IMG/VR virus record: IMGVR_UViG_2548876862_000020
Source: a virus
Taxonomy: Duplodnaviria > Heunggongvirae > Uroviricota > Caudoviricetes
Length of the DNA: 10,174 nt
Reading direction: 5' to 3' (one strand)
This document shows positions 1 through 8,495 of this stretch, piece after piece. The notes under the pieces were generated by a model that worked only from the letters and a program-made list of their open reading frames with translations, made no database searches and was not told the DNA's origin. How positions within the stretch are numbered: the first letter of the stretch is position 1; the number at the start of each line of letters is the position of its first letter. The position numbers and the translations under genes were made by a program.

Positions 1-1251
1 GTGCTTACCGATACAAAATTAAAAAACCTCAAGCCGCAGGACAAACTGTACAAGGTCTCCGATCGTGACGGGCTGTATGTAGCTGTGCTTACGTCAGGCA
101 CGGTCTCGTTTCGCTATGACTACCGTATCAACGGTCGCCGCGAAACACTGGTAATCGGGCAGTATGGGCGTGACGGTATCAGCCTGGCAGAAGCGCGAGA
201 AGAACTGATTGCTGCAAAGAAGCTGCTTAAAGCAGGCCAGTCGCCGGCTGCGGCTAAACGTGACGGTATCAAAAAGATTCGTGGTGCCGAGACGTTTGCG
301 GTACATACCGACAGTTATATGAAACACGTCATCCTGGCTGACAGTACCCGCGCAATGAAGCAGACGGTGATCGACCGTGACATACTTCCGGTTCTTGGCA
401 ACAAAATGATGGCTGAAATTACCACATCGATGGTTCGTGATTTGTGTGACCGGATTGTCGAACGCGGTGGTCGGGCAACAGCAGTACAGGCCAGGGAAAT
501 CATCAGCAGCGTATACCGTCACGCCAATGACCGTGGTCATGGTTTGTTTAATCCTGCGGCTGACATTAAACCTTCGTCTATCGCCATATTTAAACCACGA
601 GAGCGAACACTGACACCAGAAGAAATTGGCCTGTTCTTCCGCACGCTGGATGCCATTGGTGCTATGGGCACTATGAAAATGGCTTTAAAGCTGGTGCTTA
701 TCACTATGGTTCGTAAAGGCGAATTCACCAATGCAACGTGGGATGAAATAGATTTTAAAAAATGGACATGGACAATTCCTTCAGACCGCATGAAGGGAAG
801 CCGGGCGCACGTTATTTACCTGCCTAAACAGGCACAGGATATATTGGTTGGGTTGCAGATGTGCGCTGGTGGAAGTGAATATCTGGTTCCTGGTCGTTAC
901 AATTTTCGGAAGCCATTATCTAATGCCGCGCTGAACTCTCTGATCGACAGAACGGTGAAAATAATAAATGAAGATGGTGAGCATATTCAGGGCTTCACCG
1001 TACACGATATGCGCCGTACAGCCAGTACGTTGTTGCATGAGGCTGGTTATCCTTCAGACTGGATTGAAAAGGCTATGGCACATGAGCAGAAAGGTGTGCG
1101 CGCCGTATATAACAAAGCGGAATACGCCAGACAGCGCGCCTACATGTTGCAGCAGTGGGCCGATATGATTGATTCCTGGATTAACAGGGAGCATACGGAT
1201 CTGATTCCGTTCTCCCCGTCGAAGTTTGAGAAGTGGATGGCGGGGGAATAA
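1..1251 (+). CDS. int: Phage tyrosine integrase, P4/IntA-like family
   Basis: 416-codon ORF from GTG at position 1. C-terminal region shows tyrosine-recombinase signature (MVRKGEF, HDMRRT, VRAVYNKAEY with candidate catalytic Tyr). N-terminus LTDTKLKNLKP resembles P4-type integrases. Start coincides with the window edge, so a few codons may lie upstream. Confidence 0.9.
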   Translation: MLTDTKLKNLKPQDKLYKVSDRDGLYVAVLTSGTVSFRYDYRINGRRETLVIGQYGRDGISLAEAREELIAAKKLLKAGQSPAAAKRDGIKKIRGAETFAVHTDSYMKHVILADSTRAMKQTVIDRDILPVLGNKMMAEITTSMVRDLCDRIVERGGRATAVQAREIISSVYRHANDRGHGLFNPAADIKPSSIAIFKPRERTLTPEEIGLFFRTLDAIGAMGTMKMALKLVLITMVRKGEFTNATWDEIDFKKWTWTIPSDRMKGSRAHVIYLPKQAQDILVGLQMCAGGSEYLVPGRYNFRKPLSNAALNSLIDRTVKIINEDGEHIQGFTVHDMRRTASTLLHEAGYPSDWIEKAMAHEQKGVRAVYNKAEYARQRAYMLQQWADMIDSWINREHTDLIPFSPSKFEKWMAGE

Positions 1252-2795: not shown

Positions 2796-3677
2796 TTACA
2801 TAGATGTTTCGTTTAATTCTTCCCGACGAACGCTGTAAACGTCGGTGGCTTTTGCCAGCAGTTCGTCATCATCTGAAAGTTTTTGTGCAATGTATTTGTA
2901 AGCCTTATCCAGTTCGGAGACAGTGCTGTAATTCATCGCTGCGCTGGTAAAGGCCATCAGCATTTCTTCTGGATCACGGCTATCCGCTTTACGCGTTTGC
3001 TCATCATGCTTTTTCGCTGGTTTAGCGTTGATCAGACTGTTCATTCCCGCAGCAGTAGTCGTTTGCGGAGTAATGTCTCGCTCAACGCGCGGTGCCGTTT
3101 CCTGTAATTCGTCAGGGGTGTAAACACCGAGAAGCACATCAGGAGCGTGCAGGCGAGCCCATCGTTTCGTGCAAAGATAGGCAAGCTGCTGGCGCGGATC
3201 CTGTTCCCACAATGGAGAGTTACGCACTCCGGCTTGCGCCATACTGATGGTAAGCTCACGGGGTTCTGCTTCTCCTTTAAGAACTGCTGACACAGTTACC
3301 GTCAGATTCGGTGATTTATCTGTTTTGCCGTTAACATTCGACCAGTCACCGCTCCAGCGATAATTCAGGCGTGTCGCTAGCAGGCTGGAAGAGGATACGA
3401 CCGCGTTTACCAACTGTGCTTCGTAGCCTAACGTTCCGTTTACCACATGCGTTTTCTGCGCCACGGCGAAAGGGTTCATTCCCCACTGTGCCGCCTGCAT
3501 GGTCACCGCCAGACAATCGGAAGGTTTGCCTTCAAGATGTTTCGGTACAGTCGCTTTGCTTTGTGACATCAACTCCGCGAAACGCACCAGTTGATTCATG
3601 CCCTCGGGGCTGAAGATTGCCGCAGCAGTGCCTACAGTTGCGCCTGGTTGTGATGTGATTGCGATATCATTGCTCAT
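2796..3677 (-). CDS. recT: RecT/Bet-family single-strand annealing recombinase
   Basis: 293-aa ORF. Segments MQAAQWGMNPF and RVERDITP resemble lambda Bet / RecT. Start ATG overlaps the upstream exonuclease stop as ATGA (3677-3674). Confidence 0.85.
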   Translation of the reverse strand: MSNDIAITSQPGATVGTAAAIFSPEGMNQLVRFAELMSQSKATVPKHLEGKPSDCLAVTMQAAQWGMNPFAVAQKTHVVNGTLGYEAQLVNAVVSSSSLLATRLNYRWSGDWSNVNGKTDKSPNLTVTVSAVLKGEAEPRELTISMAQAGVRNSPLWEQDPRQQLAYLCTKRWARLHAPDVLLGVYTPDELQETAPRVERDITPQTTTAAGMNSLINAKPAKKHDEQTRKADSRDPEEMLMAFTSAAMNYSTVSELDKAYKYIAQKLSDDDELLAKATDVYSVRREELNETSM

Positions 3678-4495
3678 ACATACATATCCTGTTTACGTGC
3701 CCAGTCAGGGCGTTTAATAATTTCCACTCCGCCCCATTCATCGTTGATGCGGCATTCGTGATAGGTATTCAGATCCCGGCGGAACAGAGCGTGCCCGGCA
3801 TCGACATCCTGCGCATCCAGCTCGAACACGCGTACCGGATACCGACCACAATCAATGCTTTCGCTCACGGCAAGAAAGAAAAAACCATGCGTCTGACCAG
3901 TAACCCTCATTGCGCCTTCGCGGTACATTGCGTCCTGCACGTGGTAGCGGAATTCCTCGATGTGGCGTGCAAAACGGTCCATATCTGCAACCTTTTTCAC
4001 GTCGACGATCACGTTGTGCTCGTTCAGCCATTTGTCTGGACGAATGCGGCACAACTCACCAGTATCTTCATCGTTCCAGTACATTGATGCTTCGCAGTAA
4101 CCAGGTGCTTCCAGCATCCAGCGTGCCGCCGGGTGAGCCATTGCGCTATCACGCATCAGCTCCAGTTTCCGCCACTGCTCGGCATCAAGTACCGTAATCC
4201 CCATATCCGCCACATCACGAAGAAATGCCTCTTCGTCAGCTTTACCTTGTTTCGTCCGACGATCGAATTTCGGTGAAACAATGAAGCGTTTGTCGAACTC
4301 TCCAGGCTCCAGAAGCAGACAGTGCAATGCGGTTCCCATATCCAGTGCAGACTTTTTCTCTTCGTCTTCTGGTGCTGCCTGAACCCATTTAAGAAGCGCC
4401 GGATTCTTGGCAACCATGTCCAGTTGCGACTTACTCACGCCGTCACCTGCGTGGTAGTCTTCGTTGCTGATGTCGAAATAAATTCCCGGTTTCAT
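3674..4495 (-). CDS. RecE-like short-form exonuclease (exonuclease VIII-like, PD-(D/E)XK fold)
   Basis: 273-aa ORF starting MKPGIYFDISNEDYHAGDGVSKSQLD, typical of prophage short exonuclease VIII-like proteins. Candidate D...E-x-K nuclease motif around RPDKW...VDVKK. Paired and translationally coupled with recT. Confidence 0.8.
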   Translation of the reverse strand: MKPGIYFDISNEDYHAGDGVSKSQLDMVAKNPALLKWVQAAPEDEEKKSALDMGTALHCLLLEPGEFDKRFIVSPKFDRRTKQGKADEEAFLRDVADMGITVLDAEQWRKLELMRDSAMAHPAARWMLEAPGYCEASMYWNDEDTGELCRIRPDKWLNEHNVIVDVKKVADMDRFARHIEEFRYHVQDAMYREGAMRVTGQTHGFFFLAVSESIDCGRYPVRVFELDAQDVDAGHALFRRDLNTYHECRINDEWGGVEIIKRPDWARKQDMYV

Positions 4496-4793: not shown

Positions 4794-4946
4794 TCAGCCC
4801 TCCCATATCTCGTTATCGTTGGCTACATCGCGAGCTTCTTTGCTGACGAAAGCCCACTTAATGCCTTCCTGTAAGGTGCGGAACTTCCAGCTCATGAATC
4901 CGCATGCAGCAACGCAGTACCAACCGTTGATGATTTTCCACTGCAT
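4794..4946 (-). CDS. Small Trp-rich ORF (50 aa), first gene downstream of pL
   Basis: Hand-translated, not in ORF track: MQWKIINGWYCVAACGFMSWKFRTLQEGIKWAFVSKEARDVANDNEIWEG. ATG 4946 preceded by GAGGT at 8 nt. E. coli-like codon choice. Its 3' end supplies the SD for the next gene. Confidence 0.35.
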   Translation of the reverse strand: MQWKIINGWYCVAACGFMSWKFRTLQEGIKWAFVSKEARDVANDNEIWEG

Positions 4947-4965
4947 AACTTGTTACCTCGGTCTG

Positions 4966-5042
4966 TTACCGTTGAGGTAATGATTATGCGTATCTGGTTT
5001 GATGTCAATAGATATGAGTTAAAAAAATTACCCATAAGGTAA
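4966..5042 (-). promoter_or_regulatory. pL-like promoter flanked by two operator palindromes
   Basis: Minus strand reads operator TTACCTTATGGGTAA (5042-5028), 19 bp, -35 TTGACA (5008-5003), 17-bp spacer, -10 AATCAT (4985-4980), operator TTACCTCAACGGTAA (4980-4966). Operator centres are 62 bp apart. Confidence 0.6.
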
Positions 5043-5052
5043 TCTTGCTGGC

Positions 5053-5079
5053 AATAAAAAAGCCGCCATGAGGCGGCTT
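5053..5079 (-). terminator. Rho-independent terminator downstream of the repressor gene
   Basis: GC stem gccgcc (5062-5067) / ggcggc (5072-5077), extendable by 2 A-T pairs, with 4-nt loop. Followed on the minus strand by UUUUAUU. Lies 21 bp after the repressor stop. Confidence 0.7.
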
Positions 5080-5099
5080 ACTTGCTGAAAACTATAGTT

Positions 5100-5708
5100 T
5101 TATTGTTTGCTTTTTTCGTTCTGGTTGATGACAAATTCAATGTAACTTTCGATCTTTGCTTTCTCGGTTTCGGGTAACAATGCGTAGCGCGAGCGGTCAT
5201 AGTTGATAGTCGCAGGGTCGTGCGGGTGAATCAGTAGTTCATATCCGTGACGCCCGAATGCGGATGCAACATTCTCCAGGGTGGAAATGGAAACGCTGAC
5301 CTCATTGTTTAACAGGCGGCTGATTGTCACCTGGGCGACGCCGGATGCGCGGTGAAGTTTTCCCTGCGTTGAAAGGTCGCGGCTTTCGCTCATCCAGCGT
5401 TCCAGGTTGTGAGCCGCCAGCTGACCAATGTCGCTTGGTCCGACAGGCTGAAAACCTTCCTGAGAAAGCGAGCGATCGATATCAAGCCAGTTACGGGGTT
5501 TATTGGCGGCAGCTTCAATTTTTCGCGCAACCTGGTCGCCGATAACCTTCTTGCCAAGAGCCCAGCGGTTTACCAGATTTGCCTGAGTTCCAAGTTTTTC
5601 TGCCATCCGCGTCTGAACACCATTGAATTCACGGTCGATCAAGTCGTTGAGATTTTGCCTGCGGACGTCCTGGATACTTTTCATTTTCTGGAAAATCGCC
5701 TCATACAT
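5100..5708 (-). CDS. Prophage immunity repressor (CI-like position) with two HTH domains and no apparent S24 peptidase domain
   Basis: 202-aa ORF divergent from the cro-like gene across the operator region. N-terminal HTH (QTRMAEKLGTQANLVNRWALGKK) and a second XRE-type HTH (SGVAQVTISRLLNNEVSVSISTLENVASAFG). No room or motif for a LexA-like Ser/Lys autocleavage domain. Confidence 0.75.
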   Translation of the reverse strand: MYEAIFQKMKSIQDVRRQNLNDLIDREFNGVQTRMAEKLGTQANLVNRWALGKKVIGDQVARKIEAAANKPRNWLDIDRSLSQEGFQPVGPSDIGQLAAHNLERWMSESRDLSTQGKLHRASGVAQVTISRLLNNEVSVSISTLENVASAFGRHGYELLIHPHDPATINYDRSRYALLPETEKAKIESYIEFVINQNEKSKQ

Positions 5709-5739
5709 GAATCAGTAGATGATTCAATTTAAAGCAATA

Positions 5740-5813
5740 TTACCCAACAGGTAAATGCACCCCATAGGTAACTATCCTTGATTTTTGTTACCTTATGGGT
5801 GAATATTTATTAT
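5740..5813. promoter_or_regulatory. OR-like operator/promoter region between repressor and cro-like genes
   Basis: Three palindromes: 5740-5754 ttacccaacaggtaa, 5757-5771 gcaccccataggtaa (degenerate), 5788-5802 ttaccttatgggtga. Candidate pR: -35 TTGTTA (5785-5790), 17 bp, -10 TATTAT (5808-5813). Candidate pRM on minus strand: -10 AATCAT (5724-5719), a few nt before the repressor ATG. Confidence 0.55.
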
Positions 5814-5838
5814 CTGAAATAAATATCAGGCAATAGCT

Positions 5839-6069
5839 ATGAGCGATAACGGACATTTCGATTTCAAAAAGCACTGGCTTGCACTTACTCCGGATGAGCG
5901 TGAAGCCTTCGCACAGGAAGCCGGAACGACGAGTCACTATATCCAGACTCACTTAACAGGTAAGCGCAAAATGCCAGGTAAAGTATTGATGAATGGGCTT
6001 TTTAAAGCCTGTAAATCAAGACAATGGTTGCGCTCAAAAGCAGAACTGGCATACTTCTTCTACTCATGA
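5839..6069 (+). CDS. Cro-like HTH regulator (YdaS/Cro-type)
   Basis: 76-aa ORF divergent from the repressor. HTH-like segment LTPDEREAFAQEAGTTSHYIQTHLTGKRKMP. Occupies the cro position. Confidence 0.65.
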   Translation: MSDNGHFDFKKHWLALTPDEREAFAQEAGTTSHYIQTHLTGKRKMPGKVLMNGLFKACKSRQWLRSKAELAYFFYS

Positions 6070-6090
6070 TATCCAGCCACAACCCTCTGT

Positions 6091-6114
6091 AGACCGCCAT
6101 CCGGCGGTCTTTTC
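6091..6114 (+). terminator. Intrinsic terminator after the cro-like gene (tR1-like position)
   Basis: Stem agaccgcc (6091-6098) / ggcggtct (6103-6110), loop atcc, followed by TTTT (6111-6114). Confidence 0.6.
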
Positions 6115-6219
6115 ATATCTATTCGCACCTCAAAGGTAATAAAAAACCAAATCTGGTTGATCTTTTTTTTGTGTCAGCACAAAATAACCGTAATCCCAAT
6201 ACTAATAACAGGGCTTACC

Positions 6220-6420
6220 ATGGAAATCATTACACGTATTGATGCCGCAAAGCGCGGACTTAAACGCTACTACACCGGAAAACCATGTAAGCACGGACAT
6301 GACAGTGAACGCTGGGTTTACAACGGACACTGTGTTGAGTGCACCATGGAATCAAACCGTCGCATCAGGGCAGAGATTAAGCAGATCATGATTAATTCCT
6401 CCCCACAACATTCAAGCTGA
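6220..6420 (+). CDS. Small Cys/His zinc-ribbon-like protein (66 aa) at the cII position
   Basis: Internal ATG 6220 of track ORF 6157..6420. Upstream part of the track ORF overlaps the terminator region and is hydrophobic junk. Motif C-K-H-G-H ... C-V-E-C. Confidence 0.5.
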   Translation: MEIITRIDAAKRGLKRYYTGKPCKHGHDSERWVYNGHCVECTMESNRRIRAEIKQIMINSSPQHSS

Positions 6421-6435
6421 TAGCGGAGATTAATC

Positions 6436-7251
6436 ATGAGCAGACATGCAACAGATTGGGCCTGGGAGACAGATCCAGGTAGCTCGTCATTAAAGCTCAT
6501 ACTGCTCTCGATGGCTGACAGAGCCGATGAATATAACCTCTGCTACCCCAGCATAGAACGCCTCGTTAAAGACACTTGCCTGAATAAAAAAACCGTACAG
6601 GCCGGGCTTATATCGCTCATGAAAATGGGGCTTATTTCAGATACCGGAGAGAGAAAGGGTGCGACGAAAAGAGTGCGGGTTTTCTCTCTTAATATAACCA
6701 AAAACGGGAACATTAAAGGCAACCGGGAGGGAGGTAATGAACCCAAAAACGGTAATGTTACCGAAAACGGGAATATACCCAAAAACGGGATGTTGAATAT
6801 ACCCAAAAACGGGATGTTGAATGATCCCAAAAACGGGATCCAGAACCAGTCATATAACCAGTCATTTAACCAAGAGAGGGAGAGCAGGACAAAAACCGGG
6901 GATTCTGTTCCTCATGACCCCGGCGCAAACAACGCCGTGATGAATAACTTTGTTCCTCCTGGTGGGCTAGGGCAATTAGGCAAATTTGTCATGCATGAAC
7001 AATGGCAACCATCAGATGACTTTCTTCGGAAAAGCTCATTGCAGGGGATCTACCTGGACAGTCTGCCAACGGCACAGGAACTTGCAGAGTTCAGAATTTA
7101 CTGGATGGCTGAGGGTAAGGCATACCATCAGGCACAGTGGGAGCAGAAGCTGGCAAGGCGGCTGCAGATTAGCAGACAGAAGCAATCAACATTACCTGAT
7201 AACAACGTTCCGCACTGGAACAGCCCTGAAGCGTGGGAGGATTTCTTGTGA
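6436..7251 (+). CDS. Replication initiator, O-like (winged-helix N-domain, repeat linker, C-domain)
   Basis: 271-aa ORF, ATG 6436 preceded by GGAG at 7 nt. Contains DNA iterons internally. Immediately followed by and overlapped with a lambda P-like gene. Confidence 0.8.
   Translation: MSRHATDWAWETDPGSSSLKLILLSMADRADEYNLCYPSIERLVKDTCLNKKTVQAGLISLMKMGLISDTGERKGATKRVRVFSLNITKNGNIKGNREGGNEPKNGNVTENGNIPKNGMLNIPKNGMLNDPKNGIQNQSYNQSFNQERESRTKTGDSVPHDPGANNAVMNNFVPPGGLGQLGKFVMHEQWQPSDDFLRKSSLQGIYLDSLPTAQELAEFRIYWMAEGKAYHQAQWEQKLARRLQISRQKQSTLPDNNVPHWNSPEAWEDFL
6698..6840 (+). repeat. Origin-like iterons inside the O-like gene
   Basis: Six copies of core CCAAAAACGG(G/T)A at 6698, 6743, 6762, 6778, 6802, 6826. 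Two exact 24-bp tandem units at 6775-6798 and 6799-6822. Followed by tandem CAGTCAT(A/T)TAACC at 6847-6871. Encodes the low-complexity PKNG peptide repeat. Confidence 0.75.
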
Positions 7252-8033
7252 ACAACGTTTTTACCGCGATACAAAACCGTGACGGAGAAGCCCTTTATCG
7301 CATGTCAGGTTATGAGCATCAGTACGTCAACAATGACAATGTGGTGAACATGTCAGCAGAGAGGCTTGTTGATGCCCTTTTCAAACAGCTGAAACAACTG
7401 TTTCCGGCGGCAGTGGTAACCAACCTGAAGACGCCAGAGCAGGAAGTTGCTGCAAAACAGCAGTGGATTGCTGCGTTTGCCGAAGGGGGGATCCGAACCC
7501 GTGAACAGGTTTCTGCTGGTATGCGCCACGCCCGCGCCAGTGAATCTCCGTTCTGGCCGTCGCCAGGGCAATTTATCAAGTGGTGTAAAGACAGCAAGAT
7601 GGTTCTTGGCGTCACCATTGACGATGTGATGGCGGAGTTTCACCGGTACAGCAAGGAAAAAAGTTTATATCCTGGTGGTCCCGAAAGATTCCCGTGGCGA
7701 CATCCGGTTATGTACTGGGTCGTATGTGATACCCGCCGTGCAATGTATCAGCGCCAGCTTAGCGAGATTGAGGTTGAGAAACATGCGCGCAGGCTGCTCG
7801 ATGATTGGGCGAAAAAGGTGGCTTCCGGACAGCAGATACCCGATCCGGTGATCAGCATACAGGCAAAGCCAGAACCCATGAGTACGCCTCCGGACACAGG
7901 GAGAGACGTTTACCATCCACCAGGGCGAAGTTTCGGGTGTATGCCTAACGCCGCTACCCTGGGGGGAATAACACCGGCGCAGTGGCTGATGGAGGAATAC
8001 AGGCGGGGAAAGGCGGCAGGATTTATCAAGTAA
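7248..8033 (+). CDS. Lambda P-like replication protein (DnaB helicase loader)
   Basis: Segment QQWIAAFAEGGIRTREQVSAGMRHARASESPFWPSPGQFIKWCKDS parallels lambda P as recalled from memory. Preferred start GTG 7248 has GGGAGG 8 nt upstream and overlaps the O stop as GTGA. Track start 7233 has no SD. Confidence 0.8.
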   Translation: MNNVFTAIQNRDGEALYRMSGYEHQYVNNDNVVNMSAERLVDALFKQLKQLFPAAVVTNLKTPEQEVAAKQQWIAAFAEGGIRTREQVSAGMRHARASESPFWPSPGQFIKWCKDSKMVLGVTIDDVMAEFHRYSKEKSLYPGGPERFPWRHPVMYWVVCDTRRAMYQRQLSEIEVEKHARRLLDDWAKKVASGQQIPDPVISIQAKPEPMSTPPDTGRDVYHPPGRSFGCMPNAATLGGITPAQWLMEEYRRGKAAGFIK

Positions 8034-8038
8034 TACCA

Positions 8039-8058
8039 GCGCGATAGCGCATTTTTTT
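8039..8058 (+). terminator. Weak terminator-like hairpin plus T7 run after the P-like gene
   Basis: gcgc (8039-8042), loop gata, gcgc (8047-8050), then a-TTTTTTT (8052-8058). Stem is only 4 bp, so weak. Confidence 0.35.
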
Positions 8059-8070
8059 ACGTCTTGATAA

Positions 8071-8147
8071 TTACCTGTTGGGTAATAAAATATTCTAAAA
8101 TCTATTGATTTCGTGTCTTATGTGGTTTTTAATTACCTCAGGGGTAA
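8071..8147 (+). promoter_or_regulatory. Third operator-flanked promoter (p3) upstream of the DUF1064-like gene
   Basis: Operator TTACCTGTTGGGTAA (8071-8085), 19 bp, -35 TTGATT (8105-8110), 17-bp spacer, -10 TTTAAT (8128-8133), operator TTACCTCAGGGGTAA (8133-8147). Same spacing as pL. Confidence 0.55.
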
Positions 8148-8150
8148 ATC

Positions 8151-8495
8151 ATGAGAAAACAGATACAGGCTCTTGGTCGACTCAAAACAGGCCAGATGAA
8201 CAAAACAGAATCTGCGTATTGCCAGCACCTTGAGCTGCGTAAACGTGCAGGGGAAATCGCCTGGTATCGATTCGAGGGTATCAAGCTGCGGTTAGCTGAT
8301 AACACGTTCTATACGCCAGATTTCGCTGTGATGCTCGCCACCGGAGAGATGGAACTGCACGAAGTGAAAGGTTTCTGGACCGACGACGCCAGGGTGAAAA
8401 CCAAAGTCGCCGCAGATCAATATCCGTTCCGAATCATCGGGGTAACTGTTAAGCCAAAGAAAGCAGGTGGTGGCTGGAAAATCGAAGAGTTCTGA
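8151..8495 (+). CDS. DUF1064-like phage protein (predicted PD-(D/E)XK-type nuclease fold)
   Basis: 114-aa ORF. Motif YTPDF ... GEMELHEVKG fits D-x(n)-E-x-K. Overall pattern recalled as DUF1064, common next to lambdoid replication genes. Confidence 0.6.
   Translation: MRKQIQALGRLKTGQMNKTESAYCQHLELRKRAGEIAWYRFEGIKLRLADNTFYTPDFAVMLATGEMELHEVKGFWTDDARVKTKVAADQYPFRIIGVTVKPKKAGGGWKIEEF

Follow-up and report, generated by a model that had tools for sequence, protein, structure and literature searches.

TTACC-N5-GGTAA palindromes in the early region of a phiV10-like Uetakevirus as probable operators of the lysogeny repressor Rep

The closest described systems to the one considered here belong to phages epsilon15 and SPC32H, the latter of which has a Rep-Ant switch that was reportedly studied by Kim and Ryu in 2013 and by Kim et al. 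in 2016. For epsilon15, the RefSeq record (NC_004775.2) annotates a 17-bp sequence, ATTACC-N5-GGTAAT, as "protein_bind: repressor, lysogeny," with annotated sites in the gap that separates the repressor gene from the leftward operon, downstream of the replication genes, and at several late promoters. Here, we analyze the palindrome TTACC-N5-GGTAA in a 10,174-nucleotide stretch of viral DNA, IMG/VR record IMGVR_UViG_2548876862_000020 (the window), which is the early and immunity region of a phiV10/epsilon15-like temperate podophage of the genus Uetakevirus. Evidence drawn from sequence makes it highly probable that these palindromes are operators of the prophage lysogeny repressor, Rep.

According to PMC9986798, SPC32H Rep is divided into an N-terminal DNA-binding domain, a middle dimerization domain, and a C-terminal domain for tetramerization and Ant binding. 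PMC9638917 reports that the Rep tetramer binds palindromic sites through pairs of DNA-binding domains contributed by different dimers, that a single tetramer is enough for repression, and that Ant, itself tetrameric, disrupts the Rep tetramer. Functional work exists for ZX5, whose repressor is reported to be identical to that of phiV10; its overexpression abolished free phage and lowered holin and endolysin mRNA by 99.97 to 99.99% (PMC9782041). The ZX5 repressor is 99% identical to the Rep of the window. A full-text literature search, whose coverage did not extend to the epsilon15 genome paper or the primary SPC32H papers, returned no open paper that defines the operators of Uetakevirus, epsilon15, phiV10, or SPC32H. 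The phiV10 record annotates only terminators, and the Escherichia coli instance of the operator is unannotated.

The window is 96 to 98% identical to phiv142-3, phiV10 (96.7%), PAS61, ZX5, and TL-2011b. Matching prophage DNA was found in 562 of 5,426 complete E. coli genomes (about 10%), 417 of which cover at least 80% of the region.

A first-pass annotation, made from the letters of the window, had listed seven copies of the palindrome in three intergenic regions, and all seven were found where it had placed them (Table 1); a weak eighth, in a fourth gap, had been overlooked. A mismatch scan of the 10.2-kb window, with 200 dinucleotide-preserving shuffles as the null, returned five exact copies (starting at 4966, 5028, 5740, 8071, and 8133) against 0.01 expected, six sites at one mismatch or fewer, and 11 at two or fewer, against 2.9 expected. 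The corresponding counts in 164.6 kb of host background from the E. coli CE10 chromosome were 1, 10, and 116, which amounts to an approximately 80-fold enrichment of exact sites in the window. Sites with two mismatches thus occur at background density and are therefore counted here only if position and conservation back them. Intergenic DNA makes up 875 bp (8.6%) of the window and holds all six sites at one mismatch or fewer and 8 of the 11 at two or fewer; the three coding matches (4443, 5949, and 7954) are at chance level. The earlier statement that no copy lies inside a gene therefore holds for every copy with at most one mismatch, and the exact motif is not similarly frequent in coding or host DNA, a frequency that the first-pass annotation had named as damaging to its proposal.

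The palindromes are also conserved in position. We compared 14 genomes from about eight genera: the window and 13 relatives, comprising phages phiV10, phiv142-3, epsilon15, and SPC32H, Enterobacter phages Tyrion and BUCT554, Klebsiella phage BUCT711, and six prophages from a genome scan (Superficieibacter, Erwinia dacicola, Klebsiella pneumoniae, two Citrobacter species, and Scandinavium). The motif occurs in the same places in all 14, with Rep identity to the window falling to about 41 to 45%. Across 98 orthologous sites, on which the statistics are based, ACC and GGT never vary (2 bits each), the flanking TT and AA carry 1.5 to 1.7 bits, an A or T occupies the center in 94%, and the remaining spacer positions hold almost no information. 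The spacer varies even between genomes that are 97 to 98% identical; for instance, at 8071 to 8085 it reads TGTTG in the window, TAATG in phiV10, and CGTCA in phiv142-3. Invariant arms with a drifting spacer are the footprint expected of a protein that reads the arms only.

These observations leave next to no probability for the idea that chance or base composition in AT-rich intergenic DNA gave rise to the motif. Its two-mismatch versions do sit at background density; nevertheless, the excess of exact copies over expectation, the single exact copy in the host DNA, and the invariant arms beside variable spacers over 14 genomes speak against chance, and we count this explanation as already refuted. 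An RNA element was also considered as the identity of the palindromes and was rejected, given that Rfam returned zero family matches in the window and that arms of only 5 bp would not give stable hairpins. The short word ATNTGGTT, tried as a second motif, was rejected at background frequency.

The first-pass annotation had assigned the sites to the neighboring repressor, and this assignment finds support, at the level of prediction, in the homology of Rep to SPC32H Rep, the epsilon15 annotation, an invariant recognition helix, and overlap with promoter-like elements. The window Rep is a full-length homolog of SPC32H Rep (PDB 5D50 chain A; E value, 2.5e-42), and it also matched 5D4Z, the C-terminal tetramer. 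Rep is probably 194 amino acids long rather than the 202 amino acids given earlier: the methionine of MKSI at 5684 is the start in the phiV10 record, in NCBI pipeline (PGAP) annotations, in the solved SPC32H protein, and in more distant relatives. The recognition helix, NLVNRW, is identical in six aligned Rep sequences and is TLVNRW in Scandinavium. The motif was absent within 4.5 kb of five distant homologs of the N-terminal domain that have other recognition helices (from Paraburkholderia, Hydrogenovibrio, and Thiomicrospira), and these five showed no clear palindrome of their own. This support is only negative and falls short of covariation between helix and operator; the scan, seeded on conserved peptides, mostly gave relatives that share both helix and motif with the window. 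The cI of Pseudomonas phage PseuP_224, which is an S24-type repressor with a similar N terminus, yielded nothing useful for covariation.

Pfam detected only helix-turn-helix domains in the window Rep and no S24 cleavage domain. The sole strong match, HTH_3 (E value, 1.4e-9), falls at residues ~106 to 147 of the 194-amino-acid form, which is the middle domain, and the N-terminal domain gave only a subthreshold YdaS-type match. Domain annotation alone would therefore indicate the wrong DNA-reading head.

A different protein might be the principal reader, in which case the palindromes would serve mainly the Cro-like protein or some other phage regulator (of late genes, for example), with Rep bound elsewhere. 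The Cro-like protein has a helix-turn-helix that is invariant across the genus and belongs to a PHROG of transcriptional repressors, and the motif also precedes late operons. However, the epsilon15 record gives the sites to the repressor, SPC32H Rep is placed on palindromic sites by PMC9638917, and an unbiased repeat search of 4900 to 8200 found only two strong families near rep, these palindromes and iterons within a replication gene. We regard a principal reader other than Rep as very improbable. Lambda Cro uses the operators of CI, and by analogy the Cro-like protein could share operators with Rep; such sharing would be no true rival to the identification of the palindromes as Rep operators.

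The arrangement of the sites relative to promoters, all of which, like the start sites, are predictions from consensus matches, gives a further view of how Rep might act. Each operator-bearing gap comes after a terminator and therefore heads a separate transcription unit. As the first-pass annotation had proposed, candidate promoters stand beside the copies; indeed, the sites extend into the core of conserved promoter-like elements. PL, the leftward early promoter, with its operator pair OL, and the promoter P3, with its pair O3, align base for base as a distal operator, 19 bp, CTA-TTGAC/T including the -35 hexamer, 17 bp, and a -10 hexamer that abuts the proximal operator. In both, that operator starts on the final T of the -10 hexamer. 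Spacing within the pairs is 62 bp in 24 of 28 cases (OL and O3 in 14 genomes): OL has 62 bp in 11 of 14 genomes, 63 bp in two, and a rearrangement in Scandinavium, and O3 has 62 bp in 13 and 61 bp in one. In OR, the region that separates rep from the cro-like gene, spacings of 17 bp and 30 or 31 bp recur in 14 of 14 genomes. Because 62 bp corresponds to ~5.9 helical turns, the paired sites lie on the same DNA face.

We propose that a Rep tetramer would engage each palindrome with a pair of its N-terminal helix-turn-helix domains, which would contact the two half-sites, ACC and GGT. At PL and P3, with one site over the -10 hexamer and start and a second 62 bp upstream on about the same face, the pair would bracket and shut the promoter. 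One tetramer would probably bridge both sites, which is the simplest reading because a tetramer has four DNA-binding domains and a palindrome takes two. In OR, the three sites would cover PR and the -35 position of the presumed rep promoter, providing for PR repression and rep autoregulation. The weak site before the replication genes would confer partial control of a fourth unit. Induction would run through a small LexA-controlled Ant, encoded outside the window, that dismantles the Rep tetramer, and not through RecA cleavage.

Two points may be new, namely, the fixed 62-bp promoter bracket and a single operator specificity that extends genus-wide at ~43% Rep identity. The specificity is common to Uetakevirus relatives in Escherichia, Salmonella, Klebsiella, Enterobacter, Citrobacter, Erwinia, and others; if this holds, repressors might cross-react even where the phages infect different hosts, in contrast to the diversified lambdoid immunities. 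Taken jointly, as a fixed early-promoter unit with operator centers at +1 and -62, perhaps clamped by one Rep tetramer, plus a genus-wide operator specificity with perhaps cross-reacting repressors, this interpretation is tentative, and we hold it at well below even confidence. As for the clamp, one tetramer might occupy both sites on the same face or in a very tight microloop.

Alternatively, the palindromes would be Rep operators that each act singly, the 62-bp pairing being promoter layout and the distal site blocking an upstream AT-rich element or alpha-subunit contacts without bridging or looping. The stretch that separates the distal site from the -35 hexamer is indeed AT-rich, the late-region sites of phiV10 are mostly single, and the structural mechanism of repression has not been extensively characterized, according to PMC9986798. 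Yet the distal site lies outside the core promoter at a distance that varies by no more than 1 bp over 14 genomes, even though the sequence in between diverges; the spacing keeps the sites on one face, the tetramer has domains enough for two palindromes, and a single tetramer is described as sufficient for repression (PMC9638917). We consider independent action of each palindrome less likely than not.

Several points weigh against the identification of the palindromes as Rep operators in general. Rep binding at these sites in this phage is a prediction, and the epsilon15 "protein_bind" features may themselves be bioinformatic predictions. The helix-turn-helix of the Cro-like protein is as invariant as that of Rep, and conservation alone therefore cannot assign the sites to Rep. 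Promoter consensus matches in the region are no more numerous than chance gives, and position 2 of the P3 -10 hexamer is not the canonical A. The strongest OR site covers the -35 position of the presumed rep promoter, which is a poor fit to simple positive autoregulation. Finally, the presence of the motif before late operons is unusual for a lambda-style repressor.

The relatives provide a check on individual sites that the scan left weak. The middle OR site is a case in point: its position holds a perfect site in epsilon15, SPC32H, and Klebsiella phage BUCT711, and on this comparison, the weak site of the window is real; its GCACC arm is conserved in the phiV10 group. The cro-proximal OR site has the A-to-G weak arm in most relatives and an arm with two mismatches in two Klebsiella phages. 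At PR, the scan tool offered another candidate, TTGTTA, a 17-bp spacer, and TATTAT at 5785 to 5813.

The counterparts of the overlooked eighth site in phiV10, Tyrion, and BUCT711 have one mismatch each. The site keeps its position, -448 to -450 relative to the rep start, in 11 of 14 genomes; in the other three, the site is displaced or there is none. The gap that contains it, 6070 to 6219, has this weak distal site, a TTGATC/CAAAAT element, and only a TAACC half-site at the proximal-operator position, and to judge from these remnants, it resembles a third operator-promoter-operator unit that has decayed. The window would thus hold two intact units (PL and P3) and one decayed unit (6125 to 6200). 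The same gap contains a second palindrome, AACCAAATCTGGTT (AACCA-N4-TGGTT), at 6145 to 6158, between the weak operator and the -35 TTGATC. It recurs in this gap in relatives, and exact or one-mismatch copies occur in the lysis, tail-fiber, and gp06 promoter regions of phiV10 (L008 24736, 20918, and 3305). A second regulator may act there; statistically, the palindrome is weakly supported.

At P3, the assignment rests on paralogy with PL and a conserved -35 hexamer, and it is weaker because of the -10 hexamer described above. A scan-tool promoter at 8064 to 8091 was rejected as P3, its -35 hexamer not being conserved in relatives. The right half of the proximal O3 operator doubles as the ribosome-binding purines of the DUF1064 gene (8133 to 8150), and in most relatives, its center and right arm read (G/A)AG(A/G)GGTAA, 3 to 4 nucleotides before the ATG. 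The spacer, free elsewhere, is constrained at this site because the operator is also a ribosome-binding region.

Table 1. Coordinates of operators, promoter-like elements, terminators, and genes in the window
Feature	Position	Strand	Remarks
Integrase gene	1-1251		
Leftward operon; RecT, a RecE-like gene, and two small genes at its end	to 4946		
OL promoter-proximal operator, exact	4966..4980		Center 4973 is the predicted start of PL; arms invariant in 13/14 genomes
PL promoter-like element: TTGACA (5008-5003), 17-bp spacer, AATCAT (4985-4980)	4980..5008	minus	10/12 consensus matches; register kept in relatives
OL distal operator, exact	5028..5042		Centered near -62 of PL; 62 bp center to center from 4966-4980
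Intrinsic terminator closing the rep transcript	5060..5079	minus	Scan; annotated in phiV10
rep, Rep-type (SPC32H/epsilon15) repressor, 194 aa	5100..5684	minus	Met at 5684; open frame to ATG 5708 would give 202 aa
Candidate rep promoter: TTACCT, 17-bp spacer, TAAATT	5754-5726	minus	Sequence reading and TAAATT conservation; predicted start at about 5719
OR rep-proximal operator, exact	5740..5754		Overlaps -35 position of candidate rep promoter; perfect in all genomes compared
OR middle operator, weak left arm GCACC (2 mismatches)	5757..5771		17 bp from rep-proximal site
PR promoter-like element: TTGATT (5778-5783), 17-bp spacer, GAATAT (5801-5806)	5778..5806	plus	Predicted, with start at 5813; -35 conserved in all relatives
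OR cro-proximal operator, 1 mismatch (GGTGA)	5788..5802		Within -35/-10 spacer of PR
Cro-like helix-turn-helix protein gene, 76 aa, epsilon15 gp39 homolog	5839..6069	plus	78% identity to gp39; PHROG 35, E value 8.7e-13
Intrinsic terminator 3' of cro-like gene	6091..6110	plus	Scan and phiV10 annotation
Weak operator GCACCTCAAAGGTAA, 2 mismatches	6125..6139		Fourth intergenic gap
Promoter-like element TTGATC, 17-bp spacer, CAAAAT, before the 66-aa gene and replication genes	6157..6185	plus	Predicted, with start at 6192; GGTTGATCTTTTTT conserved in all relatives
66-aa gene, DnaT-like gene, lambda-P-like replication gene	6220-8033		
Terminator 3' of lambda-P-like replication gene	8039..8058	plus	GCGC-GATA-GCGC then T-run; annotated in phiV10
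O3 distal operator, exact	8071..8085		Centered near -62 of P3; homologous epsilon15 place annotated as repressor site
P3 promoter-like element: TTGATT, 17-bp spacer, TTTAAT	8105..8133	plus	Predicted; register identical to PL
O3 proximal operator, exact	8133..8147		Center 8140 is the predicted P3 start
First gene of P3 unit, DUF1064; PHROG "Holliday junction resolvase"	8151..8495	plus	Further early genes follow

Beyond the window, whole phiV10 and epsilon15 genomes carry the motif upstream of terS, the portal-region operon, the divergent region of ant and tail fiber, the lysis genes, and int (phiV10 [L008] 87 to 119, 3252, 20497, 20877, 24692, and 26870; epsilon15 [L009] 12 to 44, 2932, 19896, 24704, and 26882). 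These sites are almost all intergenic, and the int-proximal one would lie ~45 bp past the left end of the window. The earlier restriction to three regions is accordingly accurate for the listed copies in the window and does not extend to whole genomes, where further operons bear the motif. If the sites function as predicted, Rep may directly silence most transcription units. In phiV10, the annotated terS start (41) places repressor sites 87 to 101 and 105 to 119 within coding sequence (L008 41 to 122); this start is probably annotated too far upstream because the epsilon15 pair sits just upstream of the terS start.

The antirepressor gene also lies outside the window and was seen in phiV10. 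There, gp24 (L008 20543 to 20837), annotated as hypothetical, shares 88% identity with SPC32H Ant (5D50 chain E; E value, 2.9e-46), and a perfect LexA box, CTGTATAAATACACAG, lies at L008 20822 to 20837, 22 bp upstream of gp24. With an Ant homolog, a LexA box, and Rep, the phiV10 type therefore has a complete Rep/Ant/LexA switch. The ZX5 study tested a Bro-N protein (ORF4) as the antirepressor instead (PMC9782041).

The gene order in Table 1 was derived from open reading frames, Pfam, PHROGs, and the phiV10 annotation. RecT (2796 to 3677) and the RecE-like exonuclease (3674 to 4495) form separate, overlapping open reading frames both in the window and in phiv142-3; in the phiV10 record, a single 1,761-bp RecE-RecT fusion is annotated instead. 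Seven iterons of ~18 nucleotides, with the consensus ATATACCCAAAAACGGGA and a spacing of 18 to 45 bp, occupy 6692 to 6881 within the DnaT-like/HTH_36 initiator gene (6436 to 7251). They probably constitute the phage replication origin, located inside the initiator gene as in lambda O.

An operator map of this kind is useful for annotation, for predicting which prophage genes are silent in lysogens, and for engineering phiV10-type reporter phages. The fixed 62-bp bracket also offers a simple experimental handle on how a Rep tetramer engages two palindromes. The general understanding of phage repression is unchanged, the Rep/Ant switch having already been solved structurally in SPC32H.

Comparison with better-known systems places the element. 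Like OL/OR of the lambda/P22 type, the locus has divergent rep and cro-like genes around three adjacent, graded pseudopalindromes (5740 to 5802), a second operator set at the leftward promoter, and terminators between transcription units. In contrast to lambda, its Rep lacks the S24 autocleavage domain of a RecA-induced repressor and would be inactivated by an antirepressor, its homolog in 5D50 having been solved as a Rep-Ant complex; its sites are 15 to 17 bp with a 5-bp spacer; OL and O3 are 62-bp brackets instead of adjacent triplets; further promoters, late ones included, bear operators; and one specificity serves the genus. The operators work like a lambda-type system but are not a member of the lambda family. 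Neither does the motif match the LexA box CTGT-N8-ACAG, as the first-pass annotation had correctly pointed out; the true LexA box of this phage type lies outside the window and occurs only upstream of ant in phiV10.

Tetrameric repressors that use two operators flanking a promoter also include LacI (O1/O3), GalR (OE/OI), and Rco of pLS20. The lac and gal loops span roughly 92 to 113 bp; the Rep pairs, at 62 bp, are much closer, and Rep looping is a proposal. The C-terminal domain of Rep has the same tetramerization fold as Rco (PMC9986798).

The nearest relatives remain epsilon15 and SPC32H. Epsilon15, of the same genus, has the same palindrome, (A)TTACC-N5-GGTAA(T), at homologous positions and a Rep that is ~43% identical to that of the window. 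It differs in having a third OL site 76 bp further on and a perfect middle OR site in place of the weak one of the phiV10 group, and its record leaves unannotated the three sites between rep and gp39 and the second member of the downstream pair. SPC32H shares the motif and the layout along with its full-length homologous Rep; the differences are that the host here is E. coli and that the middle domain and linker of Rep have diverged. The palindrome is identical to that of the Uetakevirus Rep operators, a full-length Rep with the recognition helix is encoded next to it, and positions and spacing agree. By every sequence-level criterion tested, then, the motif is a member of the epsilon15/SPC32H Rep operator family, and the kind of element is already known because the epsilon15 record annotates the same motif as repressor sites.

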